From positions 6,594,153 to 6,658,152 of the forward strand of contig CAJINV010000005.1 of the NCBI GenBank assembly GCA_905178155.1: a stretch of 64,000 bases of DNA. Direction: 5' to 3'. The translations under genes were made by a program, and so were the position numbers. The notes beneath the pieces are model-generated. The model did not search any database, was not told the DNA's origin, and saw nothing but the letters and a program-made list of their open reading frames with translations. Below, piece after piece: positions 16,101 through 64,000 of this stretch (positions are counted from its first letter, which is position 1; each line of letters starts with the position of its first letter). Source of the stretch: Amoebophrya sp. A120. Its lineage: Eukaryota; Protista; Dinoflagellata.

Positions 16101-19100
16101 TTGACGCGGTTTGTCATGCCGTTGGGCCTAAAGGGGGGCCGTTTGCCATGCTGAGCAACTAGACGCATACGCCCCCAGCTAGCCTGGGGATCTGGCCGCA
16201 ATGCCTTTCTGCTAATCCAGCATCAGAAATTTCGTTTTGATATGGGCAGGGGGGATTTTTCCTTTTGATAGAGCGGAAGGCAAGTTGTGATGGGTACTAG
16301 TGCCACTACTTCTCCTACGAACAACATGGGAGGGGGCTCGCAACTACAGTCCGCTTCTTCCAAAGAGAACAGCGCGACCGCCTCGGAAGTTGCGTCCGTG
16401 GACCTCGTGCGGAACAGCAGCAACGAAAGTCACAGCAGAAGTTCTGCGGGGCAGCAGCAGGTGGCGAGTAGTTGTTCTGCAGGCAATGACAAGGAGGTTG
16501 GTGCTACGACAGTCGATGCTCCACCTCTTCAGGGATCAACATCCGCACGACCCACGCAGGACGCCGGAATCTTGAAGGGGCTGCAATCAACATCATCACC
16601 ACCGGATGCAACATTGCCAGCAGAGCAGAAGGTTGCTCCAAGCGCTGTCGTGCAAGAAATTGCGCAGAAGCAAGAAAAAGGAGAGGTTGCGCAGGAACCA
16701 AAGGAACTTGCCGCTGCTGCGCCGGTGCAAGAGACGAGTGTTGAAACAAAAATAGCACCCTCTGCAGAAGATGACGAACGAGATCGCGCACTGATCCTGC
16801 AACAACCTGGAACGGCGTCGGGACCATCGAATAGTTCTGTGGCCACAAGAACAAGCGGAGTACTTCTTGGTGAGGCGCAAGAACATGTAGCAGGAGGCCG
16901 CGTTGAAGCTAGTGGAAGTGCGGAAAACGACCACCGCACCTCCGTTTTGGAAGTACAACCTTCAACATCCGGGCCCACAACAGTCGCTGCTTGTGCCGCT
17001 CCTGGAACGAAAGACCAAGAGCCATCCGGAGTAGAGCGCGGTGCAGAGGGAGTTCTAGTGGGACGAGAAAATGCTGATCTTCATGTGGGCCATGGCGTGA
17101 AGATTGACGAGATCATCGTCCACAAACCTGTCCTCGGCCATATCCAAAACGGGAATATCAAAAGAGACTACAGCCAACGCGAGCTCTTATTTCCCCCGGC
17201 AAGAATCAGCACTGACGATACGAGAAACAAAAACGAAAATTCTACAAGTTCCAGGCCGACAACCCCTCACGTTGTCCCGCGCTTTCCCGAACGGCATTCC
17301 GAAGTGAACATGTACGTCGTGCAGCATAACTTCGACTTGGAGTGGCAGAAGTCAGATTCGGTTTCCAACCATTCTTCCCACCTGAACAACAACGGGAATA
17401 ACAGCTCGGCGGACGGGATAGACTCGTTGTTAAACAGCTGTCCCGCCGAGGTGGAGAGCTCGCAACAGAATTCGCCGGTTTTGTCGCGACAGGTGACCGC
17501 CAACACGTCCGGTGGCGGCAACAGCTCCCGGTCGGTGTCCCGGCAGTTAACCGCCAACAGCAACACAAGTTTTCCCCGGGCGTCGCTCGTGGCCGGGTGT
17601 ACGATCGAAGACCAGGAGGAACAAGAAAATGTCGCGTTCAACCTACTTCCTGCCCGGGGAGGCAAGATCAGAACGAAGCAGGAAGAAGAAGAACTGCAGG
17701 GGGCTAATATTGCCAAAAATGGAACAAAAAGTTTTGATACTGCTAGTACAACCGAAAGAACGTCAATAGCCACACCTAGTACGTCACCCGATCACGCTTT
17801 TGCCGCTAATCGAGCAAGCAGTCGGTCGCGACTAGGTGCAGCTCCCGGGGAGACATCAATTCTACACCAGAATGGGGCTGCAGCTAGTTCGTCTGTAGCG
17901 ATCCCAGAGCACCGAGAGCAGCTGGAGCAGCACTACGGAGAGCAGTTTTTAATGCAACACCGTCCGGCGCACCATTTCCACGGGAGTAATGGCTTAGTTT
18001 CGCAACATCATGGCGACTCGTTGTACCACTACACCTCGTATCAAATGCAAAAATGTCGGGGGCTGGAAGAATTGGAACTTGTGATGCTGTCTATGGATTC
18101 TAAGAAAATCTGCATTGCATGACCAGCAAGAGGAGTCCAGTTTGTGCTACGCGGAGACTGCGTTTCTCATGCGGAATAGGCATCAGAAAACCCTCTCAAG
18201 ATCTGTGACGCTAGGTCATGCATTACAGGCGTCGCCGGTCCTGCAAAATATGCATGACAAAGCTGGAGATCTTCCAGACCCAGACATTTTTGCATTTGAT
18301 ACCTCGCAACTCTCCAGCGGCCAGCAGACTTCAAACTCCCTGAATTGGCAGACCTCGGGGTTTCAAAGCACGTATGTCATCACCCGGGAGCAGGCGAACG
18401 TGACGAGGAATTCCAATTTTTCGTCCGGGGATCAGGAGCAGAATTTGAAAAATTGTAATGCGGACGAGGAAGTAGAGGACAGCTACGAAATTTTTAAGGC
18501 CTTCGGAAGTAGGTCGGATGCTAACGCCGAGGTGCGAGAAGAAACGGGGCTGAACACGAAAAATTATACAAACACCCTGGTAGGAGGCAGTGGTGGCTGT
18601 GTTCCTGGTGGGAACAAGCATCCTGTGCAACAAACATCATCATCTTCATCACCACAGATTCCGAATTACAACACGACAGCAGCTGCTGGTGCAAGGACTT
18701 CTACCTTTCACGGGACAGTACTCTCTCCGGTGCTGCAAAGTCGGAGGACGACGGAAAGTTTGCTATCGCACAGCGCGGAGAGCAGCAGTTATGGGCAGCA
18801 GGGCCAGAAGCAGCTGGAACAACATCAAATTGTGCAGAAAGAGAACAAAGAACACCAGCAGGAAGGAACGGAACCACCGAGCCAGAGCGGGGCAATTCCA
18901 TTTATTCCACCGCCCAGTCGTGGAGGCGACGAGGAAGGAGATTATGCGACAACAGAACATGTTCATGGTCTACCAGCAATGCAACTACCTCCAACTTATA
19001 GTACACCGGCCGGCAGCACGCCCGCCGCATTAACCGCTGTCTCCTCCACTTCCACCGCAAGGCAGTGTTTGTCCTCCCGGAGGCAGTCGTTTACAAACAA

Positions 19101-22100
19101 CGCTGATTCCGTCGTTTCGTCCACCACTACCGTCGAACTGTTCCGCACGAGCGCGACGAATTCCCAAGCGCTCGGCGGGATGGCGCAGGCTTTCAGCGAA
19201 TTTCGGCGCGACCAAGAACTTCTTCTAAATGGGGAGCAGCACCAGCAGCAGCAGGTATTAGCGGCGTCTCCGCAGGGAGGAGAACAAGGGGTACTAGCCG
19301 GAGCCACTACTACGTCGGATCCAAATCGAAGTTTCGATGTGGAGAGCCATTCGCTGAGGTATGAGAGTGCACATAGCTCGCTCTCGTTCTCATTTCTTTT
19401 GCAAAACACCAATTCCACACTTTTCCTACTATGCATAACAGGTTCTAGCACGACCCCAACTAGCACTCGAATCCTGTCGTGTCGAAATTTGTGATGCAAA
19501 ACCTGTTGTATTCTGGCCGACACTTGTATTGCTGTTTATGTCATACAAATGACGGGAGAGGGAGCTATGTGCACTCTCATATGAGGACGTACGACAGTCG
19601 GAGAACAAGTACGACCAGCTATAGTAGGAGGACAACGCAGGGAGAACAGGAACAGGAGATTTATCGCCAGAAAAAACTGTTTCACTGTAAACTTGTAATG
19701 CAGAAAATGAAAATGTATCTCACAAGTGTTTGTCTTGCTACACATGCAAGACAGTGGATTTTTAGCTGTGTTTTCCCTTAGGAACCTTGCATGGTAAGTA
19801 AATTTTCTCTGTTATGTAGAACAAACTTGCGATGCAAAACCTGCAAAATCCTTACAGTGAAACACTTTTTTCGTACGATAGGATTGTAATGGAAAATATT
19901 AATCCTGAAGAGACTGGAATAGGACAGCAGGCGCCCTCTATGCATCGTCCAGCAGATATTAAGGAACGACAAGAAACAGAAAACCACGCAGGAACATCAA
20001 CGACCAGCAGTAGGCGCAACACAACAACAGGCAGTCGAAAAACCAGCATCATGCCGGGGAACAGTAGTACAACGAATCGAAACGGTATTGAAAGAAAAAA
20101 GTTCGTCACAGTCACTAATTTTCATTTTTTGAAAAAAAATCAGGGCAAATTTGATTTGATGGCCGAAAAAGCAACCAGCGTAAAAACTTCAGGCCTCGCG
20201 TGGCATGCTGAAGTCATGGCCTGGCTGCGTTTTGCGTGCCCGGGTTGTCTTGACTCACTGAAGCTTACCCGCTGCGCGGCTCCACAGCCCATTAGAGGGA
20301 AGGACACCTACCAGGAAACGGGGCAGACCGCGTGTCTTGGATTACACGGACCTAGCGCGCAAGTGGTCGCGCAGCGCCTCCATGGCCTTCCGCTTCTCCC
20401 TTGATAAAGCAGGCCGCCTTCGTTCCGTTGACCTGTTTTTCTCCGAGTGACTATGGCGCGCAAGAATCAAAATTCCCATTCTTGGCTTCATGCAGTCGGA
20501 AAGAGTTGGGGCTTTTGCGCATTCGCGTAAGATGCTTCTGCCTTTAGACAAGGTAGTTGACTGCCCTGGTCCGCCCAGTGACATGTGCCGCACTCAGCCC
20601 CGTGGTTTGGGTATTTCGTTAGAGGGGCGCGCGTAAATGCGTTGTCGTTCATAGCTGGCATATATTTTTCAAAAGTTCGTGGCGCAGTGGCTGCGCTAAG
20701 AATTCTTTGCGTAGCCAGGAAGGCGTAGGAGCTCTTGCGGAGGCATGCGTGCTTCAGCGCGTCTGCCCCGGAAATGGCTAGAATTCAGCTCCGTCAAGGC
20801 GTCGAGACTAGTTCTGCAAAATGCGAGGCCCTTGCAGTCGAAGGGGAAAAGGTCGCGCGTTTCCTCCACATCAGAAGATTTCTTTTTTTTCACATCTCAA
20901 TTTTTCGAAAAATGAAAAATTGTGACTGTGACGGGGGAATCCACATCATGCCGGGGAATAGTAGTACAACGAATCGAAACGGTAGGACTTCTACCTTTCA
21001 CGGGACAGTACTCTCTATCAAATGCAAAAATGTCTTGGTCTGGAAGATTCTGAGACTTGTCATGCACGTTTTGCGTGGGCCATGGTGTCTGTGATGCATG
21101 CCCTAGCATCACAGACTTTTTGAGGGTTTCTGGATACCTATTCCGCATGACAAATGCCCTCTCCGCGTAGCCAAAATTGCATTCCCTTTGCTGGTCATGC
21201 AATACAGATTTTTTTGGAATCCACATGCAGCATCACAAGTTCGGATTCTTCCGGACCCAGACATTTTTGTATTTGATACTCTCTCCGGTGCTGCAAAGTC
21301 GGAGGACGACGGAAAGTTTGCTATCACACAGTGCGGAGAGCTATGCACTGCACAAATGTCTGGGTCTGGAAACTTGTGATGCTGTTTGGCGAATCATGTG
21401 GACGCCTTCATTGACAGCCAAGCATGACAAGTTTTGGAGTTGCTATAGTGTTGCCTATCTGCATGACAAACTGCGTTTCTTAGACATCGTGTTTGTCATG
21501 CTGGACACACCAACCTTGCTGTTTTTCTGGCCATTTGCATGCTGGTCCCTGGACTTGGACGTTGGCACCACGATCGCAACCCCATTTTCCAAACCACAAT
21601 GTTTTTCTTCCCTGCTAGAAATTCGAGATGCCACCTTTAGGATGGTTTTTTCGGTAGGTGGGACTGTGTCATAGTTAGCTGCTTCGCGCCTTTTTTACTT
21701 TTTATTTCTGTTCCCTCGGTGCTAAGACACGATTATTGCACAGCGCTATTTCTACTCAGATAACAACAAAACTCACGCCGCAGGAGCCGTCCCAGGAGTT
21801 TCGGTTGTTGTCTCTCGGTAGCAATCGCGCTATTCAATTTTCTGTTTTTAGAGTTTACCGGGTATGCGGTTTCAAGTTTGTAGCTTTGGTTTATAAAAGG
21901 GACGCCCTGCCCTTAGTTTCCCAACATGACAAACTGCGTTTCTGCATGACAGAGAAGTGTGGCTTTTGTGTGGCGCGCATGACAGACTTGAGCGCCATGC
22001 TAGCTGTGCATGACAAACCCTGCATTCTTCCAGACCCAGACATTTTTGCAATCCATAAGAGCAGCATCATGCCGGGGAATAGTAGTACAACGAATCGAAA

Positions 22101-25100
22101 CGGTAGGACGTCGCACGACGCGCAGACTACAGGCTTCCTCAGACGAGAACCGAGCGGTCGCAGAGCTCATGAAGATCCCGTGACACACGACCACCGAGGG
22201 CTAGTAGATACGACACGTACAAGCAGCCCGATAAATAAGCGCGATGGAAGACTCGATGAATCAGACTGGGGAAATAATCCTCGCAATGTAGTTCCAGGCC
22301 GACCCCCGTCCACCCTACTGGTCGCGCCGGCGCCCACTCCCCGGCGCCAGGTTTCCACGAACAGCAACAGCAACTACCATATTACAATGAAAGATGCCCC
22401 CTCCCCATATCAAAACGGAAATCTGTGATGCAGATTTGTGGTCACAAATCAGCTTTGTGATGCTAGAAGGCAAAAGATGCGGACTGTAGTGCTGTCTAGC
22501 GTGGGAAAGCCTTGCAGCTCCAGGATGACAGGAGGCAACTGGAAGTGGGAAACAGCATGACAGATTGCCTGCAATTTAGGCCGCAGCTTCGTCTCTTGGC
22601 CTTCTAGCAATACAAGTCGATTTGTGTACTCAAATACAGCATCACAAATTCGCGCATCTTCTGTTTCCGATATGGGGTGGGGGCTTTTCTCACTTTGATA
22701 TACCAACTTTCCTCCCAGCCGTCTTCTAATTTGACCGCCACCTGGGAGCACGACGGGGTGCTGATAGGGGGTGCGGGCCACCAGGTGGTCGTGGGTAACA
22801 ATCCAAACTCCGAGGACAGTGTACAATCCATCATGCCGGGGAACAGTAGTACAACGAATCGAAACGGTAGGACGTCGCATGTCGCGCAAACTAGAGCCCA
22901 CCCGAGACAAGAGCCGAGCGGTGGCAAAGCGGATGAAGATGTTGATCCTGTGACACACGAGGACCACCGAGGGTCGTCACGAGATACGACCACACTTACT
23001 CCAGAAAGCAAACACGATGGAAGATTCTTTGATAAACAAGTCCGAGAAATAAATCCTCTCATCCCAGCCCGACCCCCGTCCACGACCCTACTGGTCGCGC
23101 CGGCGCCCACCCCCCGGCGCCAGGTTTCCACGAATAGCAACAGCAACTACCAACTTTCCTCGCAGTATCCTGAGTAAAAACGCCCCCTCCCCATAGTCCA
23201 GATGGCGAATCGGCTAGACAATTCCACAAGCTTTGGCTGTCTTGCATGACAAATTTGTACTCGTAGCGTAGTGCTGTTTGAGCTAGCTCAGCAGCGTCAC
23301 AGATCTAGTATATCATGCTGATTGGAGCATGACAAATCGCAAAACGCGCCTAGAAAATGCCTCTCATGGGGCTCCGCATGAGAAACATTTTCAGCATGCA
23401 GATTTGCATTACAACTATGGGGTGAGGAGGACGTTTTTAAATACGATACCCAGCCTTCTTCTAATTTGACCGCTACCTGGGAGGTGCACGACGGGGTGCT
23501 GATAGGGGGTGCAGCGGGCGGGGTCATCGTGGGTAACAATCCAAACTCCGAGGACCGTGTAGTTCTACTCGCACAGGAGAACAAGCCCAGTTCCTCGACA
23601 GTACTAGGAACAAGCTCTCCTGATGGTAAAACCATAAACGCGCTGAACAATAAGATCCCCCCGTCGACGTCAACGACATCAGGTCAGCAACACCAAAATC
23701 GCTACAACGCACGGGCGTCCGTTCCCAAAGATTTGTTTGCGATCGCGAAGGAATCGGAGAAGATTCAACTGAAGAACTCGTTGCGACGGGCACGATCTGC
23801 AAACGCCAGGAGCACGTCTAGCAGTTCCGCCAACCAGGTGCGGGCTGTTTACGCAACAGAACATGTTGGGGGTAGTAATGCTGGTTTTACAACAGGTTCA
23901 ACATCTCCACCGCGGCCCGCGACCGTGACAAACGCCAGCCGCAAAACGGTTGCGGACCTGGTCCAGGAAGTGGTCAACGAGAAAGGAAACTCGCCTTTGT
24001 CCAGCAGCGGTAGGTTTCTCTTTGTCAACCACAAAGAGGTGAATCGGATTCTCCGGTCGGCGGGAAAAATTTCGGAGAGCGGAACGTCCCGGAGCGGGGG
24101 GGAACAGGAAAATTATAAACAGCGCAGTGGAGCAGGAAATCTAGCTTGTTCCAGCAGTACTTTCAGCAGTAGGGAACACGACCATCACGGACAATTAGCG
24201 CAGGGTCGTGACGGTCGTGACCCGAACGTCATTCGCGAATCCGCTTCTGATAAGCTGGCGCACGACGGCCAGGAACCTGCCACGCCCGAGCAGCCAACGG
24301 ATCTTCAATCGCACCAGCACCAGCTTCATACCACTTCGGACGAGCACTACACTGAGTCGGATAAGAATTTGGACAACCATGATCATGTTGTCACCACACG
24401 GAAGCGGCAGATCTTCACCCCAACCGCGCGGAGAAACGTCAATGTGCCGGTGAAAATTACAAGTACAAACAGAAATAGCTCCTCCGTGGTCCACGTGGAT
24501 GAAAGTATCTCTTCGCCACCTCCTCCGAGTCGTGCGATGATGGTCCCAGCGGGCGCTATCGTAGACGGTTTCTATTCGTCTTCCTCCGAGCGCGCGTTCC
24601 TCGACGGCACGCACGACAGCTCCGGCCCCATTCCGGATTCGGATCACAGTGCTTTCCCGACCAGTGGCGAGACGACACTGTCCGCGGCGAATTCACCGGG
24701 GGATGTGCTGGGGTTGACGTGGCCTCTGAATGGAAGTAGCAGTTCGATGTACGGGTTTGGTGGCCCTGTTGTAGCAGGAAGTGGCCGCTCAGAAACCAGG
24801 TCGAAGTCGAAGGAGAAGCCGAAGACTGTGGTGCAAGACCACCACCGACGGGAGGGGGACTTTGACGACCTGCTGCTCAATTTTCATAACTATGCATTCT
24901 GCAAAAGTAGTGTTTCTACTCGTACTTCTCGTGCTGGAAATCGCAGTACTGCAAGGCATACGAAATGATCAACGCAAAATTTCTTATGCTGCTGTTTCTT
25001 GTATAAGGATCATACATGTGTCATGCGTGCTTGCATGCATAGAAGTCCGTCTACCAGTGCGATTACTTTTGCGTAGGATAATCCCTCCGAGTTAAATTCT

Positions 25101-33193: not shown

Positions 33194-36100
33194 ATGGCGC
33201 AGCAGCACCAGCTCCCGCACAGCCACCGGGCCGGGGATGTGGAGTACTTCAAATCTGCGCAGGGCATGACGGAACCGGAGAAATCTGTCACTGAGTTCCT
33301 TGCCATCGCGCACCTGGTGGAGCAGTCAGGCGATGGATCACAGATTTCCTTCAAGTTGAAGCAGGTGATGTTCATTACAAGAGCGCTTCCTTTTTTTGTC
33401 ATGCGTCATTTGTCCTCACATGCACTTGCATTTTTCGACCGAGAAACTTGTTTTTTTTTGTGTATGCATAAACAAAGTGAAAATTCATCATCCTAATTTT
33501 CACCAAACGTCACAGGCTATTTTGACCGACGACGAGGTGGCAGTCGCCACTTTGGCCAAGAACCCGTATGCATTGCAAAAGTAAATCGCACTGGCAGTAC
33601 AAATTGCATTTGCAAATTTTCTTAATAGCTGCAAGAATGGAGTTTATAATGCTGACGGACGTAAGGGTAAGCGGTGAGAGTGAGACTGCAATTTCTGCAA
33701 GTGCGATGCTTATCGTTTTGCAGAGGATAACCACTACCACAATGCGAAATCCGTAGTAGCGCTGTGTGTCGGGGTTGCGAGTAAAGCGGGGGAGGAAGTT
33801 TTGAAGGTTCTGTTGGAGAAAGTTGGAAAGGCGGAACCGCTGGACAAGGACGAGGTGTGCAAAAGCGTATTTGAGTTCGGAAAGGAAACGAAGACGGGAA
33901 GGGGAATACGGTACCAGGAGCCCGTCGTCATCACATCGAGTAGTCACTCCAAGCTGAATCGCTGCCCGGTGTCAATTGCCAAGCAGATGGACAACCGGCT
34001 AGCACTTCGGGTTTTGAAAAAATCCGCGAAATTCCGCGCCCCGGTGCACAATCACAGCTCCGCGGACGTGAAGAGATTTCGAGACGCCGAGACTATGCCG
34101 GAGCCGCGCAAAAGTTTAGAGCAGTTCCTGGCGGTAGCAGACATCTTAAAGGACGGGGGGAGCTCGGGCGCTCACTTGAAGGGCAGAATCAATTCAGCGT
34201 TGAAGCGGGCGATTCTGAAAAACGATTTGGCAGAAGTGAAGAAGGAAGACGTGGGCACTTCCTTCGTCGCCCTGTGCGTTGCGGCAGCGAGCAATTGTAG
34301 CAAGGAGGTGCTCGAGCATTTAGCTCGAAGATTCGGGCCACGAGCAAAAGGCGCAGACTTGGTCGAGCAGACGAAGGCTTTTAATCTCGAAGTGAACAAG
34401 CGCGTGCACATGTTCGGACTGGAGCTTGCCGGTGAGGAGCATACGACGACGAACCGGTACTACCACGGAGCAGAGTACTCCTTACTCGGCGCATGCCCAG
34501 TCGCAATTGCGATCCAAGCGGGGAATTACGCGGGGCTGGACTTGCTCTTGAAGAAGGGGTTTCCAATCGATCGCAAGCCGTATTACACGTCCGTCAGCTT
34601 CCAGCCCAGTCTGCTCCAGAAAGCGCTCTGCACAGCCGACAATGGGCAGCGTAAGTTGATGGAGGCCAAGGCGTCGGCGGTTACCATCGCGATCGAAGGC
34701 GGGGACCTGAACGCGCTGCAATTGATGCTAGACAACGGCGCGCTGGCGCGAGCGGATGTGGCGGAGCTCATCCTTGTCGCGATCAGAACCTCCGGCGCGA
34801 GAGTTTTGCGGTTTTTTTTGCAGCACAATTTCGCACGACGTCACGGCACTTTTCTCGATGCTGCTAACTTTTTCGACGCCGCGCTTCGGCGAAGCGAGTC
34901 CTCCAACCTGGAACGGCGTCAGGACCATCGAGTAGTTCTGTGGCCACAAGAACAAGCGGAGTGCTTCTTGTTGAGGCGCAAGAACATGTAGCAGGAGGCC
35001 GCGATGAAGCTAGTGGAAGTGCGAAAAACGACCACTGCACCTCCGTTTCGGAAGTACAACCTTCATCCGGGCCCACAACAGTCGCTGCTTCTGCCGCTAC
35101 TGGAACGAAAGACCAGGAGCCATCCGGAGTAGAGCAGCGCGGTGCAGAGGGAGTTCTCGGGGGACGAGAAAATGCTGATGCTCATGTGGGCCACGCTGTG
35201 AAGATTAACGAGATCGTCCACAAACCTGTCCTCGGCCACATCCAAAACGGGAATAAAAGAGACTACAGCCAACGCGAGCTCTTATTTCCCCCTGCAACTA
35301 CCAGCAGAGAGAGAGACGGCACGAACCAGAACGAAAACTCTACAAGTTCCAGGCCGACAACTCCTCACGTCGTCCCGCGCTTCCCCGAACGGCATTCCGA
35401 AGTGAACATGTACGTCGTGCAGCATAACTTCGACTTGGAGCGGCAGAAGTCAGATTCGGTTTCCAACCACTCGTCCCACCAGCACAACAGCTCGGCGGAC
35501 GGCATTGACTCGTTGTTAAACAGCTGTCCCGCCGAGTTGGAGAGCTCGCAGCAGAATTCCCCGGTGTTGTCCCGACAGGTGACCGCAAACACGTCCGGTG
35601 GCGGCAACAGCTCCCGGTCGGTCTCCCGGCAGTTAACCGCCAACAGCAACACAAGTTTTCCCCGGGCGTCGCTCGTGGCTGGGTGTACGATCGAAGACCA
35701 GGAGGGGGAGGAAGAAAATGTCGCTTTCAACCTACTTCCCACCCGCAGCGCAACTTCTCCTCGGGCAAAGGAAGGAACGGAACGGGAAGAACCACAGGGC
35801 GGGGGTATTGCAAGAAATGGAAACAGTTTTGTTGAAACTCAAAGTCAAACTACTAGTAGCGAAAGAACGTCGTCCGAAGTGGCCGCATGTAGTGCGACAA
35901 CCGATCACGTTTTATTTTCCGCTAATCGTGCAAGCAGCCGGTCGCGGCTAGGCGCAGCAGCAGCTCTTGCTGGGGAGACAATTCTACACCAGAATGGAGC
36001 TCCTGCAGCTAGTTCGTCTTTAGCGATCCCAGAGCACCGGGAGCAAGTCGAGCAGCACTACGGAGAGCAGCACTTAATGCAACACCGTCCGGCGGCGCAC

Positions 36101-37182
36101 CATTTCCACGGGAGTAATGGCTTAGTTTCGCAACATGGCGACTCGTTGTTGTACCACCACACCTCGCAACTCTCCAGCGGCCAGCAAACTTCAAACTCCC
36201 TGAATTGGCAGACCTCGGGGTTTCAAAGCACGTATGTCATCACCCGGGAGCAGTCGGATGTGACGGGGAATTCGAATTTGTCGGGGGATCAGGAGCAGAA
36301 TTTGAAAAATTGTAATGCGGACGAAGAAGAGGACAGCTACGAAAATTTTAAGGCCTTCGGTAATAGGTCTGATCTTGGCGCAGGAAGTTGTACGGAGCAG
36401 GGAGCTATTAACCCCGAGGTGCGAGAAAAAGCGAAGAATTATAACAACACCCTGGTAGAGGGAGGCAATGGTGGCTCTGTTCCTCGAGGTGGGATGAACA
36501 AGCATCATGAGCAACAAACGTCATCATCTTCATCACCACAGATTGCGAATTACAACACGACAGCAGCTGCTGCAAAAACTTCTACCTTTCACGGGACGGT
36601 ACTCTCTCCGGTGCTGCAAAGTAGAAGGACGACTGAAAGTTTGCTATCGACGCCGCGCTTCGGCGAAGCGAGTCCTCCTGCCTGTCGCTGCTGTTGCACC
36701 ACTTCGGCGGGAAGCTTCTCAACAGCTCCCACTTGCAAGCTTCTATTTTCACGCCGTGGGCGCAGAGTGCTGCGAGTCTGATCCTCAGCCACGGGTGCGA
36801 AAATTTGGTAAATCAGAAGCACAACTCCATGACCACGCTGATCGCCCTAGCTTACTACACCGAGACCCTCTGCATCAGCGACCAGAAGGCCACCGCCATT
36901 GCGAAGATTCTACTGGACTTCGGAGCGGATTTGACTGCTACCCGACTGGGGGAGACAGCCTTGGACTACGCAGTGAAATCCGGCAAAACGGAGCTTGCGT
37001 CTCTGCTAAGGATGGAGGAACTTGCGGCGAAATCCACCCGGGATGAGCTGGACAGATCTCTTGCTCTTGGCGGTGCAGGAGGGGCGTCAGCTGGATCGGG
37101 TTCGGGTGCTGCGGTCGGGAGCTCTGGGAGCGGATCGGGTGGGAGTGGGGGCACGGATCCGAAGCGGCGCCGGGTTGGGTAG
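33194..37182 (+). CDS. Ankyrin-repeat protein interrupted by a 1.74-kb insertion (possibly pseudogenised)
   Basis: Ankyrin-like motifs CPVAIAIQAGNYAGLDLLLKKG, SAVTIAIEGGDLNALQLMLDNGA and ILLDFGADLTATRLGETALDYAVKSGKTELASLL. GT-AG intron 33365-33515, introner 33567-33729. Frame restored by removing 34905-36678. Confidence 0.7.
33567..33729. mobile_element. Introner (TATGCATTGCAAAAGTA type)
   Basis: Imperfect TIR; TSD ACCCG/ACCAC; frame restored. Confidence 0.78.
34905..36646 (+). repeat. Diverged, introner-free copy of coding segment 16803-18768 inserted into the ankyrin gene with a 32-bp direct repeat
   Basis: ORF 34940 closely matches ORFs 16287/18115; TCGACGCCGCGCTTCGGCGAAGCGAGTCCTCC at 34873-34904 and 36647-36678. 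Confidence 0.9.
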
Positions 37183-54000: not shown

Positions 54001-57000
54001 AGACAGACCAGCTCTGTCATGCCGGATATGCATAGGAGCTTCGTTTCATGGGTGCTTTATTCCCTTAGGATTTCTGCATTGCAAGTTGCATTCTCTCTCA
54101 TGCAGAGAAATTTGTGTTGCTGAATCGACAACAAATGTGTAAGTGTAACAGTTTTTTCCTGTGATACGGAGTCACCGGGCCTTGCACCAAGAGCGCATGG
54201 AGGACCTATGCATTGCAAAGATGTCTCGGTCTGGAAGCATGGAGCTTGTAATGCTAGTCGTGCATTCCTGTAAAATCTGTATTGCATGACTATACAAAGA
54301 AGACGCCCTCTTTAGTCATACAAAGCACAGTGTCTCATGCGGACTGAGCATGAGAGAGCGTTCTGCAAACTTGTCATGCTTGGCTGCATTGGCAAATATT
54401 TCAGTCATCCACAGTTCAGCATCACAAGTTTCCAGAGCCAGACATATTTGCATTTGATAGGACCACTTTGCGCACAATTACAATCCCGGGTTCTACGGCT
54501 CCAACAACCACGGCCACGACGTGATGCACATGAATTTCGCGTCTACCCTATCCTGAGCGAAAACGTCCCCATTGTCATGCAGATTTGCAATTACAGGAAA
54601 ATTTGTAATGCGCACTCTTATGGAAGACATTTCCAATCGTGTTTATTTGGAATTTGTGATGCTGTAAACAGGATAAGAAAAAGGCTTTCTGATGCAGCTG
54701 TCCTTGCTAAACTGCACTACAATACACAGAGAAACTTGTCATGCGTGACTCGCAAAAGTTCTGAATTTGTGTTGCTAAGTTCCCAACTTGCCTATGGGGT
54801 GGGGACGGTTTTTCAAAGGATACACCCGACCGCAGTCGGCCGCGCCCGCGAAAAATCGGTGGACGGTGCACGCGCACAAGGAACAGATGCTATGCGTTGC
54901 AAACATGTCCTTGTCTGGATCTGGCAGATTGCAAGTTGTCATGCTGAATCTACACCATGCAATCGCAAAATAAAAATCTGTGTTGCATGAGTACCAAGCA
55001 AAAGGTGTTCGCTTTTGACCAAGTTGAGAGAGGGTTTCTCATGCAGGAAAGGCATGATAAAGACCTCAAAGAGTCTGTCATGCTGGGTTCCCCATTCCAG
55101 ACCTCACGGGTCATGGAAAACCTGCATGACAAGTTTTGCAACCTTCCAGACCCTGAAGTGTTTGCATTTGATAAAAGCAGGCCCTGAGCAATCGACCGCG
55201 GACCGCTCCCTACGGGTCGTCGGCGCACCAGGTGGCCAACCAGCGGGACAAGGACGAGTCCTACAATGCGCTCAGCAACCTGCAACAGATGTTCACCAAA
55301 GTGCACAAGGAAAATCAGGTCCTGATCCAGCAAAAGCTAAACGTGGAAACGGAATTGCGCGAGTATTTGTCGACGAAGGAAGGCCACATGGCCAAGCATA
55401 TGGATTGCAAATATGTCTGGGTCTGGAAGATTGCGAAATTTGTCATGCTAGTCTGGCATGACTCTGAACTCTGTGTTGCATGGCCGCGAAGAGCTCCTCC
55501 CCCCTGTCATGCAAAAACGCAGTTTGTCATGCGGAGTACGCAACTCAGAACCATGAACAAAACTTGTCATGCTTGGCAGCACATCATAGTGAGTTCACGA
55601 CTCCCTTTCTTGCATCACAAGTTTCCAGATCCAGACATTTTTGCATTTGATAAAGGAAATATTCGAACAACGGGATTTGGTGAAGTCCTTGCGCACTCGA
55701 CTTTACAACATGGAGCAGGATAACGTGCGCGCGACGGCGAAAGCTAAGCGGTGTGAAATATCAAATGCAAAAATGTCTGGGTCTGGTTCTGGAAGAACGC
55801 AACTTGTGATGCTGCATTTGGATGTCTAAAAAATTTGTGTTGCATGAGCAGCAAAAGGATTCTAATTTTTGCTACGCGGAGAGGGCATTTGTCATGCGGA
55901 ATAGGCATCAAGAATCCCTCAGAAAACCTGTGATGCTAGGGCATGCATCACAGATCGATCATGGCTCATGCAAACCGTGCATGACAAGTCTCAGAAAAAT
56001 CTTCCAGACCCAGACATTTTTGCATTTGATACGAAAGAAGGGCATACGAAGAAGAAATGTTCCTGAAGCAAGCGTATTTTTAGATTCTTCTTTTTGTTGT
56101 CATGCGGGATGACAAGTATAAATGCAAAAATGCATCACAAGAAAATTGCTTACTGGTGTCATAATTTTGCGCATCAGAAATCCACATCTTATATCAGCAT
56201 GAAGGAGATTATCGAAGCGTCAGGATTGAAATCGTCAAAGTTGAAATAACTTGCAATGCATAAAATCGATACCAGTTCGAAGCCCAATTTCCAAGCGGCG
56301 CATGACAAATTTCCCGAGCACCGGAATCCAATTTGTCATGCTGTTTGGGCACAGACGACTGCTTTTGTCATGCTACTTTAGCAGCTCTATTTCAAACCCT
56401 AAACAGGCTGACAGTCGGCCTCACTTGCCATCCCGGCAAGACAGGCACTTCATGCCTTGCATTTCATGCATGACAAATCATTTCAACTTTGTCGATTTCA
56501 CACCTGACGCTTCCATAGAGATCGAGACTCTGAAGCAAGTAACGGTGGAACTGCAGCGCATGAATTTGGAGCTACATTTACGAAAAGTTGCGTTGCGGGC
56601 GAGCCAGGACATAAACTGGTTGTCATGCGAATTGTCATCATGCTGGATCTGGAAATAAAGCGCCAGCCGCTTTTTTTCTCTCGCGCGCGTGAGCAAGAGA
56701 GCACCAGCAACCGGCCGCTATTGCATAGACATGACAGCAAGTTTGCTATCTATGTGTTGAAAATAATAAATTTGATGTTCTGCCTCTCGTCCGCTTTCCT
56801 CCCTTCCATACACGGAATCCCCCCAAATGAAGCTGATTGAGCAAAAGCTGTACAAGTTTCAGAAGGGCCTCACCAAACGCACGAAGGAGCTGAACGACCA
56901 GAACGATGCCCAGGATGAGGCGGTGCAGGAGATTTGGGTCCGGGTAGAGAAGGTGAACACCAAGGTGGACGGGCTCTACGCAATGACGGAAGCGGTATTT

Positions 57001-59620: not shown

Positions 59621-61539
59621 ATGCGAATCGCAAAGCAATCTTCCCGTCTCACACTCCTCCGCGAGCTGTTTCTGTTGCAGCAAGCACACGAGCAGGGCGG
59701 CAGACCAGTCGTACACGGTTACCAGGAAAACAAAAAACGACTTCGGGGAACCGCGAGAGAAGCGCGCGAGACGGAGGAAAACGCTTTCTCCGTTGTTGCG
59801 GAAGGCAATAAAAAAGGCGGTGGCAAAAAAGAGAAGAACAAGGAGGGACGAGGTAGTAAAAGAGACAAAAAGAAGGATCCAGATGAAAATCAAGAAGGCG
59901 GAGCAGGGGATGCAATTGCGGACGCGGTGGACACGCAAGATGAGAACAAGAAGACGAGGAGGAAGAAGGCCAGCAAAGGCAAGCCAACAGAGGCGGCGAC
60001 CACAGATGCAGAAATAGGGCCCGACGGCGGGGTATCAACTGTAAAAATGTCGGGGTCTGGAAGAGTATTAAACTTGTCATGCAGGTTTTCCATGACGCGT
60101 GAGGTCTGCGTCTGGAATGCGGGACCTAGCGTGACAGAGTCTGTGAGGTCTCTGCTATGCCTATTCTGCATGAGAAACTCCCTCCGAACTTGGTCGAAAG
60201 TGAACAGCATTTGGCCCTCATGCAACACAGATTTTCGCACTATCCGGATTTAGCATGACAACTTGCAATCTTCCAGACCCAGACATTTTTGCAATCCATA
60301 CGGGGCCGCAGCGGAAGTAGACAATGGAGCCTCAGCAGATGCCGATCAAGAAGCGGATAGCGATGAAAGCAGCAATATCCTGAGTAAAAACGTACCCACA
60401 CCAGAGTCAGGATGGGGATTTTGCAACACAAACCTAGGAGTTTTGTGAGTCACGCATGACAAGTTGCACTCTGCAGTGTAGTGCAGGTTAGCAAGTGCAG
60501 CCGCGTCCCAGATTCATCTGCTCATCCTGTTCACAGCATCACAAATTCCAAAACAGGATTGGAAATGGCTCTCATGGGGATGCGCATTACAAGTCTTCCT
60601 GTCTTTGCAAATCTGCATTACAACTCTGGCGTGGGTACGTTTTTACTCAGGATATAGGCGGCCGGAGGTAGGGAGAACGAGAAGAAGCAGCGCCGCAAAG
60701 CCACTACCGATAGTGGTGACGAGAACGCGAATATCAAATGCAAAACAAGTGTCTAGGAGGTCTGGAAGAATGCATGTTTGTCACGCTTCTCTGGCATGAC
60801 TCTTAAATCTGTCATGCACGTTACCCAAGAGCCGCCTTTTTCTGTCATGCAGAAACGCAGTTTGTCATGCAGAATAGGCAACACCTAGAAGCTCAAAAAC
60901 TTGTCATGCTGGGCCAGCACTTGTGGCCTTCTCATGATACGCCACCCAGCATCAGAAATTTCCAGACATCCAGGGATATTTGCATTTGATAGCGAACGAC
61001 GATCAAACGGAACGAGAAGGAGCTGCACCAGCAGCGGACGAAAACTCCTTCGCAGCCAAGTGGCAGAACGTGCGGAAAAGAGCGAGTGAGGGTATGACCT
61101 GCTCAAACGTTAGAATCTCAAACGTTACAATAGAATCTGAGACTTGTCTTGCATATGTGTATAAGCATGACAGACTCGCAGACCGTTCCACTTTCTGCAG
61201 TACAAATTTCGGCATATTGTAGTGCGGTTCGGGACTCCGGAACTTGTCGCGCGCAGTCCTATGAGACTCGGCTAGATCATGCACTTCTTGCATCACAGAT
61301 TTCGACATCGGGGATGAAGAAATACTCGCGATGTTTTCGCGGTTCTGACCCGATGCCGCTCCAGCGCCTGCGGAGGCTTGCTTCCCCAGTGATAATGGAC
61401 AATGGCAATGTCGGTGCGGTTGTTTTAGCATCACAGATTTCGACATTCTATTGCAGCGTTTGAGATTGTAACGTTTGAGCAGGTCATAGGGGGCTGGCAG
61501 TCCTTCAAGGACAGCGCGTTGTCCAGGCTCGGCAGCCTG
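59621..61539 (+). CDS. 5' part of a hypothetical Lys/Glu-rich protein with hydrophobic N-terminus; continuation lies past the retroelement
   Basis: MRIAKQSSRLTLLRELFLLQQ... continues across four introners to EGWQSFKDSALSRLGSL, then meets a fifth element end. Confidence 0.6.
60033..60300. mobile_element. Introner family A
   Basis: TIR; TSD CGGGG. Confidence 0.9.
60376..60654. mobile_element. Introner family C
   Basis: Near-perfect TIR; flanks AGCAA/TAGGC do not match, but +5 removal restores frame. Confidence 0.88.
60732..60991. mobile_element. Introner family A
   Basis: TIR; TSD GCGAA. Confidence 0.88.
61093..61488. mobile_element. Introner family F (TATGACCTGCTCAAACGTTA)
   Basis: ~32-bp TIR; TSD GAGGG/GGGGG; internal repeat GCATCACAGATTTCGACAT twice. 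Confidence 0.9.
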
Positions 61540-61563
61540 TATCCATTGCAAATATATCTGGGC
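61540..61563. mobile_element. Left TIR of a family-A introner interrupted by the LINE
   Basis: TATCCATTGCAAATATATCTGGG directly followed by RT coding sequence. Confidence 0.72.
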
Positions 61564-64000
61564 TCACCCGCGAAATTAACAAACGAGTAAGAGACGACCG
61601 GGCAGCATGGGTGCGCGAAAAAATACAAACCTTGAAGCAAGCTGACTGCAGCGGGAATACGAAGCTGATTTTTGAAACAGTGCGGCAGCTTGCGGGAAAA
61701 GGGCGAAAGCGGCCGCAGGAGCTGCCGGGACCAGCAAAATTGTGGACCGACTTCTGGGGGGACATCTTCGGCAAGGAAAGGCCGGAGCCTCCAGCAGAAA
61801 CGAAGCAGACAAAAACCTGGGCACGGTGTGAAGCAGAAATTCAGAAAAATCGAGAAGGCCCAACATGGTGCGAGGGCCTCGGCGAAATCCCCACAGAGGG
61901 AGAGGTGGTCGCAGCGCTTCGGGAGCTGAAAGCGGGCAAAGCATTCCACGGGCCCTGCCCGGCGGAGTTTGCAAGGGAATGCCCAACAGTTCAAGCAGTG
62001 CTGGTGTCTCTCGTGCGTCGAATTTTTCGGGGAGACGAAATCCCCGAAGAGTGGGGCGAGGCAGTAGTAGCCATGCTCCACAAGGACGGCGTGAAACACG
62101 ATCCGAAAAACTGGAGACCGATCGCCCTGATTTCTTTGGGCGAAAAATTGCTGGGCCTCGTCATCCTGAGAAGAGTAGAAGAAGGGGCCAACAGAGAAAT
62201 GGACCCCCGGCAGAAAGGGTGCCGGCGCGGACTGTCGACCCGACACGCAGTGTTCGAGCTGCTGAGGGACATCGAAAAAGCCAACAAAGAAGGGCGCCGC
62301 GCCCTGTATGCCTTCATCGACTTCGCGAAGGCGTTCGACAGCCTTTCATGGCCCGCCATGGAGGCCATCCTGCGACTTCAAGGAATGCCAGAAAATATCT
62401 GTCGCGTGCTCCGCGACATGTACCGGCGCAACGCAAAGTGGAGCATCCGGCTGGGGAAAGACCGGAACACCGAACAACGAAAACAAAAGAGCGGCATAAG
62501 GCAAGGCAGCGCGCTTTCGCCGTTGTTGTTCGCACTTTGCGTCGATTGGGCCCTAAAACAGTTCGCAAAAACGATGGAGGAGGAAATGAAGTGGACACAA
62601 GACCAAGCCCTTGCCCAGGCCCTGGCCTGGCTTGGGTATGTAGACGACCTGGCCGTCAAGGCCTCCAGTGTCCCCGACATTGAGTTTGCGATGCGCGAGC
62701 TCTCCAGCGCGTGTCGCTTCATAGGCCTCGACTTGAACATCCGAAAAACGAAAGTTTTGGCGGTTAACCAAGAAGCAGAACAGAAGCAGAGCCCCACCGC
62801 CATGATGGAGAAGTGCATCATGGACGGGGAAGAGGGGTGGACGATCGACTACTGCGGGATTGACTGGGATAAAGAGTGGCAGACAGCAGCAAAATCCATC
62901 CCGCTTGCCGGGCTCGGCGACCTCGCGCCAACTCATCTGGTTGTCTGGGACAACCCGGCGATCGGTGTGCAGATCATCGCGTCCAAGCCGAGTGGGTGGG
63001 CAACCGCTCATTGCGGCACTAGCATCCGGCTTACGAGATTAGGCCTGCGGAAATTTGTCCTGGAAGAGAAAAATAGTTTTACTTGCGAGAAGTGCGGCGA
63101 TGTCCTCGCGGACGAGACCGCGCTTCATTTTCACAAAACGACCGGGTTTTGCCGGCCGAACAAGTCGGTGAAAGAATTGCGCACATTGCGGGTCGCGCGA
63201 ATGGTGGAGCAAAAGAAGAAACGAAAAGCCCGGCCGGACGCCGCGGCCGGGCTAAAGGCGGTCAAGCTCCATGGCAAACCGGTGGAGTGCGTGGGGTCGT
63301 TCAAGTACCTCGGCACGGAGGTAGGGTGTGACGGCTCCACCGATGCCGAGACGCATCGCAGATGCGGTCTAGCTCTCGGTGTCGTCCGCCAGGTCTCTCC
63401 CGTCTGGAGGGACAGTAGCGTCCCAACCCACCTGAAAGCCGACTTGTTCCGTTCTCTCTCCCTCAGCGTTGCTTTGTACAACGCTGAGACATGGACTATT
63501 TCCCCAGCAGCAGCTACTTCCTTGCGACAGTTCCAGGACAGTGCCCTGCGGTACGTCCTGGGGGGACACTACAGAAACGCAGAGAAAAGTAGGGAGGAGC
63601 TGTGCGCCGAGCTAGGCCTGCAGGCGATCGAGGACGAAGTAAGATGCAAGAGAATCGGATGGATCGCGCACACATGCAGGGGGATGCAAATGAGGGGTCG
63701 ATGCGCAGAATCGAGCAAGAGATAAACCGCAAAACAGCATGGGGAAAACAAGCAGGAGACGATTTGGATTTGTTCAACATACCCTTCAGCGAACTGAAAA
63801 ACACAAAGCCGACCGGGGAAGCAATACGGGCGACGCTGGCGCAAAGAAGAAAAATACAGCCGGTGCAGCGCAAGAGGGGCGTGGAAGCAGGCAGACCGAA
63901 GTCGAGAAAGCGCACAGAGATGGAAGAAGAGAGAAGAAAACGACTAGAGCAACAAAGACAGGAGACTGAGGCAGCAAATAAAGTTTTACTATTGCGGATC
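61564..64000 (+). mobile_element. 5'-truncated non-LTR retrotransposon (LINE, RTE-like), runs off the window end
   Basis: RT motifs NWRPIAL, QKGCRRGLST, FIDFAKAFDSL, GIRQGSALSPLLF, YVDD (~62637), FKYLG and WIAH. No endonuclease domain upstream; starts abruptly inside an introner TIR. Confidence 0.9.
61611..63725 (+). CDS. Reverse transcriptase ORF of the LINE (N-truncated, probable frameshift near 63680)
   Basis: 704-aa ORF with non-LTR RT motifs. A shifted frame stays open from ~63683 to the window end. Confidence 0.85.
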   Translation: MREKIQTLKQADCSGNTKLIFETVRQLAGKGRKRPQELPGPAKLWTDFWGDIFGKERPEPPAETKQTKTWARCEAEIQKNREGPTWCEGLGEIPTEGEVVAALRELKAGKAFHGPCPAEFARECPTVQAVLVSLVRRIFRGDEIPEEWGEAVVAMLHKDGVKHDPKNWRPIALISLGEKLLGLVILRRVEEGANREMDPRQKGCRRGLSTRHAVFELLRDIEKANKEGRRALYAFIDFAKAFDSLSWPAMEAILRLQGMPENICRVLRDMYRRNAKWSIRLGKDRNTEQRKQKSGIRQGSALSPLLFALCVDWALKQFAKTMEEEMKWTQDQALAQALAWLGYVDDLAVKASSVPDIEFAMRELSSACRFIGLDLNIRKTKVLAVNQEAEQKQSPTAMMEKCIMDGEEGWTIDYCGIDWDKEWQTAAKSIPLAGLGDLAPTHLVVWDNPAIGVQIIASKPSGWATAHCGTSIRLTRLGLRKFVLEEKNSFTCEKCGDVLADETALHFHKTTGFCRPNKSVKELRTLRVARMVEQKKKRKARPDAAAGLKAVKLHGKPVECVGSFKYLGTEVGCDGSTDAETHRRCGLALGVVRQVSPVWRDSSVPTHLKADLFRSLSLSVALYNAETWTISPAAATSLRQFQDSALRYVLGGHYRNAEKSREELCAELGLQAIEDEVRCKRIGWIAHTCRGMQMRGRCAESSKR

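Follow-up and report, generated by a model that had tools for sequence, protein, structure and literature searches.

In a 64-kb stretch of DNA from Amoebophrya sp. A120, a marine parasite of algae (the window, that is, the whole stretch that was analysed), an ankyrin-repeat gene is interrupted by a coding fragment homologous to part of a neighbouring gene. On balance, we favour a recent DNA template switch as its source, with a working, diverged copy of the neighbour as the template; the insertion would truncate the ankyrin protein. The features concerned are as follows (positions are those of the window).

33194..37182, + strand: ankyrin-repeat gene (the target), with exons 33194-33364, 33516-33565 and 33734-34904, and then 36679-37182 past the insert
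34873..34904, + strand: left copy of the 32-bp target duplication
34905..36646, + strand: insert, an internal coding fragment homologous to 16803-18768, with an open frame and no introner
34989..34991, + strand: stop codon that ends the ankyrin frame early, 28 codons past the start of the insert; the public model P0002 (492 aa) ends here
35408..36781, + strand: ORF of 457 aa (public model P0001), which starts at the first ATG of the insert and runs, out of frame, into the ankyrin 3' half, where it ends
36647..36678, + strand: right copy of the 32-bp target duplication, of which the first 3 nt also match donor-like sequence
16290..24968, + strand: neighbour gene, low-complexity, with no Pfam hit in the ORFs scanned; its segment 16803-18768 matches the insert
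18039..18301, no strand assigned: introner in the neighbour, absent from the insert, with TAT..ATA inverted ends and an exact 5-bp duplication

Structure of the insert and of the interrupted gene

The first-pass annotation of this DNA had described an introner-free 1.74-kb coding copy inside the ankyrin gene with a perfect 32-bp duplication, and this was borne out: the insert is 1742 bp long (1774 bp with one repeat), and the repeats (34873-34904 and 36647-36678) are identical at 32/32 positions and not extendable (probability of an exact 32-bp pair by chance in 64 kb, P ~1e-10). The proposed match to 16803-18768, diverged and with indels, was also recovered (1501 matches and 126 mismatches, or 92.3% of ungapped columns; 31 gaps), and the lack of the 18039 introner appeared as a clean 268-bp alignment gap, which is the length of the introner 18039-18301 (263 bp) and a single copy of its 5-bp duplication together. 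With the neighbour as proxy donor, the microhomology at the ends was 1 nt on the left and 3 nt on the right, as the earlier figure of 1-3 nt had it, and lengths so short are also given by chance. A 3-nt match at the 3' end is likewise expected from microhomology-primed reverse transcription.

The neighbour has a 1775-aa frame after removal of its introners and two repeat-flanked units; the insert covers codons 172-738 of these about 1775 codons and ends mid-exon. It forms an intact ORF (34868-36781) without in-frame stops, in a frame that differs from those of both ankyrin halves. Its 5' part, before the first ATG, keeps this frame too. Terminal inverted repeats were not found in 33 cut registers (best, 10/20 matches), nor was poly(A) (at most 5 A in a row over the last 100 nt) or a spliced-leader relic in the insert. 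Just one neighbour intron position, that of a young introner, is spanned. The introner-free state of the insert is uninformative (P 0.32). Two further candidates were rejected: a -1 frameshift signal at the left repeat, whose hairpin is no more stable than shuffled sequence (z -0.03 with DNA parameters), and an earlier in-frame fusion of the insert with the ankyrin gene, both joins being out of frame and abutting exact matches.

When 1774 bp are taken out, the ankyrin frame is stop-free for 557 codons (33735-37179) across the junction, so that removal with one repeat does restore DAALRRSESS followed by CLSLLLHHF, as had been noted. The frame of the 3' half is still open; Pfam Ank_2 and Ank_4 score above the cut-off in this half, and Ank_2 below it in the 5' half. 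A protein of Amoebophrya AT5.2, P0005, matches the two halves in order (5' half, E 7e-12; 3' half, E 3e-11) without a gap near 580 aa. At the level of sequence comparison, this contiguous relative shows the polarity to be that of an insertion into the A120 ankyrin gene. The public gene models cut the ankyrin short inside the insert. No full-length spliced ankyrin model was present among proteins of 214-683 aa, and exact protein look-ups gave no match for the ankyrin 3'-half model or for the unspliced neighbour ORF.

Divergence and constraint

Between the insert and the neighbour, 29/31 gaps are multiples of 3, compared with 9/24 in the introner control (10 introner pairs); the two non-triplet gaps (11 and 17) both fall in one poorly aligned block (net +6), and in the first 500 bp of the insert 6/6 gaps keep the frame. 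The dN/dS was 0.275 (bootstrap 0.165-0.421) for 419/550 codon pairs, with three poorly aligned blocks dropped, and 0.389 for all 550 codon pairs; dS was 0.153. For the 5' part of the insert alone, constraint is weakly shown, because the dN/dS of 0.39 has an interval of 0.14-0.89. One neutral lineage should give a dN/dS of at least 0.5. The frame-keeping gaps, together with a dN/dS below 0.5, show that the lineages of the insert and of the neighbour were both under coding constraint; the template cannot have been the neighbour gene with neutral decay thereafter. What the ankyrin gene carries is therefore no decaying neighbour copy, and the donor was functional. The repeats are still 32/32 despite the dS of 0.153 (P 0.007 if neutral; 0.11 if both lineages were coding); from this identity, the open ankyrin 3' half and the frame kept in the 5' part of the insert, the insertion is likely to be recent.

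Sequencing-run contigs

Seven of 11 sequencing runs (X1-X4, X6, X7 and X9) were examined. X1 and X2 (DNA) may be reads of the assembly itself, and X9, raw RNA reads under the same species label, gave 0 reads matching the window, too few to serve as a test. X3 and X6 were treated as RNA because their contigs join across the two upstream ankyrin introns, both of which are kept in X1, and X4 was so treated because it shares its sample with X3. The RNA evidence consists of contigs, which drop rare variants, and covers two samples of a single study; the same data may also underlie the gene models. The insert-to-repeat join is present in X1 contigs, and both joins are present in X3 and X4, each with 30 repeat letters; since this is one letter short of the bridging rule, no listed piece spans flank, repeat and insert, and the linear order therefore rests on the assembly.

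In X3 and X4, one 1802-nt contig each covers the insert with both joins, and the insert is retained in full in RNA contigs from which both upstream introns are spliced out. A joint across the insert was absent from the joint and indel tables of the contigs (two RNA samples covered); in particular, the RNA joint of 34904 to 36679, proposed earlier as a check, was not listed in the RNA contigs examined. The graph of X6 lists the repeat joined to the right flank and no piece leading from the repeat into the insert, a pattern that skipping and low cover would both explain; the hole at 34903-35163 in this run could be a low-cover tip clipped by the assembler. The suggestion that the insert might itself be removed as a direct-repeat-defined intron was therefore not supported, because RNA contigs (X3 and X4) hold the whole insert and the public models truncate the ankyrin inside it, X6 being ambiguous.

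Contig depths, which cannot rank the parts of one gene, were 13.8 (left flank), 18.7 (insert), 26.2 (repeat) and 16.9 (right flank) in X3, and 5.2, 4-12 and, for the right flank, 14 in X6; those of X3 give no sign of skipping. In X1, the depth was 24-27 for the insert, 22-25 for the neighbour and 29-30 for the flanks; in X2, it was 32-36 for the insert contigs versus 44-48 for the neighbour. An indel-rich run, X7, holds both versions. X4 and X6 have zero cover on the neighbour-unique bins 16366-16608, 18796-19038, 20011-20739 and 22927-23160, which serves as a check against DNA carry-over and is not a sign of a silent neighbour.

Origin of the insert

The first-pass annotation had offered a cDNA-templated insertion or break repair as the origin. 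The evidence favours, as the most probable class, break repair or template switching with an introner-free template; the missing introner lends the cDNA origin no support, because local duplicates here gained introners after copying. The nascent strand, having already copied the 32-mer, would have switched to the donor on 1-nt microhomology, copied 1.74 kb of it, and come back on 3-nt microhomology to a position 32 bp back from where it had left, as in FoSTeS/MMBIR or SDSA; the 18039 introner would never have been present in the donor. According to an excerpt of PMC5120786, a fork that switches back to a more proximal locus leaves a duplication at the insertion site. A second insert with a similar signature lies within the neighbour itself.

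20944..22109, + strand: second templated insert, with a 94-bp copy of 18694-18787 (2 mismatches)

It is flanked by exact 45-bp repeats (20944-20988 and 22065-22109) with 5-nt microhomology at each end, and now carries two introners (21016-21278 and about 21343-22057), both of which its source is without. The window has 42 strict TAT..ATA introner elements; other long repeats in it (41, about 55-70 and about 120 bp) lie beside inverted-repeat elements, and the inverted-repeat DNA elements flanked by long repeats show truncated ends and fillers. Insertions with 32-120-bp target duplications number five or six in 64 kb, two of them copied from the neighbour gene. The second insert and the other 41-120-bp repeats point to template-switch repair recurring in this window, and suggest a route of repair other than that of the 5-bp introners. 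A description of such a long-duplication route for Amoebophrya was not found in the literature listings searched; the supplements of PMC7789003 may list long-repeat introns.

A closer source paralogue, which had been proposed as a check, did not turn up in any of the sets searched. The DNA contigs (X1 and X2) contain no third copy of the insert/neighbour sequence: in X1, the variants listed inside the insert correspond to the neighbour, as do the loose ends at 34904 and 36149, and in X2 the neighbour flanks are single contigs (16242-16900 and 18738-19687) at likeness 86, some X2 differences having gone uncounted because introner contigs flooded this run. In metagenomes, two scans gave 492 and 174 pattern hits, of which 0 were confirmed as the donor, and protein searches, including a longer-protein search, gave none beyond the window's own models. 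The donor is likely to be another allele or a lost paralogue of the neighbour, and the missing introner therefore says nothing about cDNA. We lean towards another allele; a lost paralogue is a serious possibility, and its loss explains the missing donor equally well. The simplest route to a missing donor would be a copy made in cis in one lineage and a later crossover in the roughly 16 kb between the two genes, the crossover bringing in a different neighbour allele. If the donor was an allele, the insert records recombination between lineages 15% apart at silent sites; cryptic species of Amoebophrya have little gene flow. If the template-switching reading is true, the insert is the fossil of a gene copy no longer visible in the genome.

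Alternative explanations

We regard an RNA-templated origin as unlikely. In this model, part of the interior of the diverged donor's mRNA would have been copied into a staggered nick by a LINE reverse transcriptase in trans (or by way of an RNA patch), leaving the 32-bp duplication. The introner is absent with a clean join, both gene-fragment inserts are exonic pieces, and a possible trans-acting enzyme is encoded in the window.

61479..63725, + strand: reverse-transcriptase ORF (RVT_1, E 3.6e-26)

Non-LTR elements are reported in Amoebophrya genomes (excerpt of PMC7789003), and LINEs with long duplications, R9 (126 bp) and Dualen, exist (excerpt of PMC9977147). Against this origin, the insert has neither poly(A) nor a spliced-leader relic, the copied piece is internal (codons 172-738), and the one intron position spanned is that of a young introner of the kind gained after copying by local duplicates. 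Moreover, long repeats also occur at inverted-repeat DNA elements with truncated ends and fillers, and the missing donor would still be required.

An old, selected, dual-coding insert is improbable; under the guidance of the repeats or of a GT..AG pair inside them, it would be removed in some life stage to give the full ankyrin, and otherwise kept to give the 457-aa protein. It would need no missing donor; the ankyrin halves and the insert frame are all intact, the only listed path of the X6 graph runs from the left flank through the repeat to the right flank, and more than 60% of A25 and A120 introns are non-canonical (excerpt of PMC7789003). A frame-restoring GT..AG pair is also present inside the repeats.

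34898..36668, + strand: possible GT..AG intron with both sites inside the repeats, restoring the ankyrin frame with one extra codon; absent from the contigs

However, the scanned range holds 62 GT..AG pairs that restore the frame, so that finding this one is no more than chance would give, and there is no GT..AG register for exact removal; inverted ends are absent at 33 cut registers. The X3 and X4 RNA contigs hold the whole insert with no joint across it listed, a full-length spliced model is absent among proteins of 214-683 aa, and the first 500 bp have no ATG or in-frame translation route, yet 6/6 gaps keep the frame. We give little credence to a related proposal for this lineage, from which U1 snRNA has apparently been lost: the long duplications would mark what is to be removed, and excision of the 1.77-kb insert in some life stage would let one locus make both proteins. 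If the duplications were removal signals, template switching (30-120-bp repeats) would feed a new kind of intron from captured genes.

It is highly improbable that the chromosomal site is empty and that the repeat and insert are a separate circle or a mis-joined contig. The 32-bp repeat does break the contigs, with no flank-repeat-insert piece listed, a circle would give the same graph, and the insert contigs of X2 are shallower than those of the neighbour (32-36 vs 44-48). Nevertheless, both joins occur in RNA contigs of a second study, the depth of the insert in X1 (24-27) lies between those of the neighbour (22-25) and the flanks (29-30), X7 holds both versions, and Nanopore reads were used to check scaffolds in the published pipeline for the named strain (excerpt of PMC7789003). 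Least credible of all is a copy of the neighbour itself, pre-introner or from cDNA as the first-pass annotation had it, with neutral decay in place thereafter: although the neighbour, 18 kb off, is the only homologue detected and a 94-bp piece of it was copied locally, frameshifts are expected (29/31 gaps are triplet; 15/15 in frame, P ~4e-7 at the control rate), as are a dN/dS of at least 0.5 (observed 0.275, upper bound 0.42) and decayed repeats (P 0.007).

Comparison with known systems

The published systems are represented here by excerpts of the papers cited. As in FoSTeS/MMBIR (PMC5120786), a donor segment would have been copied from elsewhere, the microhomology is short, and a proximal return would leave a duplication; the insert shows microhomology at both joins (the neighbour being the proxy donor) and a duplication at the site without element hallmarks, as expected of FoSTeS/MMBIR or SDSA. 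The human cases excerpted in PMC5120786 are of kilobase to megabase size with the donor present, whereas no exact donor was found in the genome for the 1.7-kb insert with its 32-bp duplication. In templated sequence insertion polymorphisms (TSIP; PMC5110952), the patch is likewise templated by host sequence, and the duplication is like that of class 1 and the microhomology like that of class 2. Class 1, however, requires a polyadenylation signal and a TTTT/A site in addition to poly(A), and class 2 is without duplication; the insert has the duplication of at least 5 bp (32 bp) that class 1 TSIPs and LINE retrocopies share but no poly(A), and it has the 32-bp target-site duplication that class 2 lacks, so that it fits neither class.

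R9 and Dualen LINEs and retrocopies (PMC9977147) have duplications far longer than those of typical LINEs, as here; theirs flank the element itself, whereas the insert is an internal gene fragment with no element sequence and no tail. SDSA filler after DNA-transposon excision (PMC4423477) also brings foreign DNA into a break in a genome dense in inverted-repeat elements, but the rice fillers excerpted are 1-123 bp, often with deletions, and no excision footprint is evident at the ankyrin site. In the Daphnia neointrons, ascribed to repaired staggered breaks (PMC4202315), an exon is interrupted and a direct repeat of exon sequence stands at the bounds, as here; the repeats are 4-12 bp and the inserts AT-rich and spliced, whereas ours has a 32-bp repeat, is coding and is present in RNA contigs.

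The introners of Amoebophrya (PMC7789003) belong to the same kind of genome and, like the insert, have a direct repeat within a coding exon. Introners occur in many copies, with inverted repeats of 8-20 nt and direct repeats of 3-5 nt; the insert has neither kind of repeat and no family, its ends are not inverted, it is single-copy by the DNA contigs, and its direct repeat is 32 bp. The comparison marks a limit of the flexible splicing in Amoebophrya: introners with inverted repeats are removed, and an insert with direct repeats only is kept in the RNA examined.

Structure and polarity of the insertion

The features analyzed were as follows.
33194..37182, + strand: ankyrin gene
34873-34904 and 36647-36678: 32-mer, repeated exactly
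34905-36646: insert (1742 bp) between the two repeats
16290..24968, + strand: neighboring low-complexity gene
16803-18768: part of the neighbor resembling the insert
18039-18301: introner of the neighbor

Alignment of the insert with 16803-18768 gave 92.3% identity over ungapped columns; the 263-bp introner and one copy of its 5-bp duplication were absent from the insert. Microhomology, measured against the neighbor, was 1 nt at the left and 3 nt at the right end. With the insert in place, the ankyrin frame reached a stop 28 codons inside it; deletion of 1774 bp gave a stop-free frame up to 37182. The exact repeat, the introner-free match, the microhomology and the restoration of the frame on removal had been described in the first-pass annotation and were confirmed. 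P0002, the public 492-aa ankyrin model (source name: Amoebophrya sp. A120), shared 100% identity with the 5' half of the gene.

The 5' half was searched against 1.84 billion representatives with an E cut-off of 0.001. Four matches were obtained (E <= 0.001), among them P0005 (source name: Amoebophrya AT5.2 g9262.t1), of which residues 3-216 corresponded to the 5' half and residues 307-375 to the 3' half. The global alignment of P0005 with the rejoined ankyrin frame scored 157 (best of 100 shuffles: -45) and had no gap near 580 aa. Because the ancestral ankyrin gene was contiguous, the event was an insertion. The ankyrin N-terminal motif is repeated internally (33218-33331 and around 34047-34160; 42% over 38 aa), and the AT5.2 relative starts at the second copy.

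Retention of the insert in RNA

Contigs of the runs treated as RNA (X3 and X6) were spliced across a GT..AG intron (33365-33515) and an introner-type intron (33566-33733). The first-pass annotation had proposed that the insert could be removed as a direct-repeat-defined intron; no joint skipping it was listed in the X3 and X6 contigs, and X3 and X4 (same sample) contained it whole. Neither inverted ends nor a GT..AG register for exact removal was present. The insert is retained in the RNA examined, and it likely truncates the ankyrin protein. The public gene models split the locus into a 492-aa ankyrin that stops within the insert and, separately, a 457-aa ORF starting at 35408; they may depend on the same RNA as these contigs, and their pipeline is described as designed for non-canonical introns (PMC7789003). 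Two hints suggest that the insert may be spliced: in X6 the repeat runs directly into the right flank and none of the listed pieces leads into the insert, and GT at 34898 with AG at 36668, both within the repeats, would restore the frame plus one codon, but this pair is one of 62 of its kind and was not seen in the contigs.

Introners and the template

The window (GC, 49.7%) is crowded with elements of 209-328 bp, bounded by TAT..ATA inverted ends and by target duplications of 5 bp; a strict rule counts 42 of them. They match the introners reported for Amoebophrya A120, whose inverted repeats begin with TAT (PMC7789003). At 33566-33733, the introner is removed in the RNA contigs from 1 nt before the TAT end to 4 nt past the ATA end (GT..CA), so that position rather than sequence seems to determine the acceptor; the same rule also leaves the neighbor's frame open across four further introners. 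At 21343-22057, 54549-55173 and 60033-60654, an introner-like element with approximately 430 bp of extra internal sequence was observed, together with recurrent adjoining introner pairs from two families.

A 94-bp stretch of the neighbor (18694-18787) was copied into 20984-22066 with 2 mismatches, between exact 45-bp repeats and with 5-nt microhomology at both ends; the copy now carries two introners that have no counterpart in the source. Introner positions differ between the tandem units 22065-22828 and 22829-23561. Introner gain outpaces divergence of local copies, so that an introner-free DNA donor is expected, and the missing introner is uninformative on a cDNA versus a DNA template. An RNA template, copied by a LINE reverse transcriptase in trans, is unlikely: an RT ORF lies within the window (61479-63725) and LINEs with long duplications are known, but the insert has neither poly(A) nor a spliced-leader relic, and the copied fragment is internal to the neighboring gene. 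This RVT_1 ORF, which apparently lacks its 5' part, directly follows an element (61093-61488) whose inverted ends are 44 bp long, and the sequence continues beyond the window end.

Physical integrity and copy number

In contigs of DNA run X1, the left flank ended at 34902, insert pieces reached 36676 and the right flank began at 36649, the pattern expected from a 32-bp repeat. Depth was 24-27 for the insert, 29-30 for the flanks and 22-25 for the neighbor. X1 and X2, the second DNA run, may be the assembly's own data. X3 and X4, from a different study than X1, each gave one 1802-nt contig with both joins (X3 span, 34875-36676), each join having 30 letters of repeat. A separate circle with an empty chromosomal site is a formal alternative, because the joins fall one repeat letter below the bridging rule. 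We conclude that the insertion is real, single-copy and templated, with an unusually long duplication.

Divergence and the donor

The insert is an open frame over its whole length, and 29 of the 31 gaps against the neighbor were multiples of 3, the other two (net +6) lying in one poorly aligned block; in 10 introner pairs chosen as non-coding controls, the frame was kept by 9 of 24 gaps. With 131 codon pairs from three poorly aligned blocks left out, the remaining 419 of 550 gave a dS of 0.153, a dN of 0.042 and a dN/dS of 0.275 (0.165-0.421); over all 550 pairs dN/dS was 0.389. A single neutral lineage would be expected to force dN/dS to approximately 0.5 or above. Given the open frame, the in-frame gaps and the dN/dS of 0.275, the insert is not a decayed copy of the neighbor.

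The insert is out of frame with the ankyrin gene at both joins, the 3' half of that gene is still open, and identical repeats have P = 0.007 to 0.11 at the observed divergence. These data are most simply read as a recent insertion whose source, a working gene, had already diverged from the neighbor. The 152 codons ahead of the first ATG in the insert, where constraint is weakly shown (dN/dS 0.39; 0.14-0.89), count against this reading.

In X1, the variants listed within the insert and the loose ends at 34904 and 36149 were the neighbor's sequence; at a third (35363), a contig joined out-of-window sequence to insert or neighbor sequence, possibly a further short copy of the neighboring gene elsewhere or a chance match. 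In X2, a run saturated by introner contigs, the neighbor's flanks were single contigs (likeness, 86). The closer source paralogue that the first-pass annotation suggested seeking was not found in the X1 and X2 contigs, nor was another homologue as donor in protein and metagenome searches; the donor was therefore likely an allele of another lineage or a paralogue lost since. The allele route across species is less favored because gene flow between ribotypes is reported to be low (PMC7018713).

Long repeats and comparison with known systems

Long direct repeats in the window
20047/20944: 41 bp (40 identical), flanking an element that has inverted repeats, a truncated right end and filler
14492/15441: approximately 55-70 bp
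4531/4913: approximately 120 bp, around an introner
45-bp and 32-bp repeats: around gene fragments

The region 20047-22109 of the neighbor was hit repeatedly, by an 856-bp inverted-repeat element (41-bp duplication), the 94-bp self-copy (45-bp duplication) and the tandem-duplication start (22065/22829). An in-frame 1832-aa reading results if the usual rule is applied to the introners and the element is spliced at 20085-20943; one of three registers works, which is chance level. The 949-bp unit at 14492-15508 contains an element sharing its left end with the 20086 element; removal of the unit, not splicing of the element alone, leaves a 286-codon stop-free stretch. At 4531-5305, the duplication surrounds introner 4652-4902, the second copy acquired its own introner, and splicing both leaves an open frame.

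Because the long repeats are varied, they fit repair synthesis that would re-enter its template behind its exit point; this enzymology we infer. The literature searched, of which coverage was partial, showed no account of inserts of this kind in Amoebophrya. The insert belongs to neither of the TSIP classes (PMC5110952), and the long repeats fit neither Daphnia neointrons, with repeats of 4-12 bp (PMC4202315), nor introners (PMC7789003). They do fit the template re-entry behind the exit described for FoSTeS/MMBIR insertions (PMC5120786).
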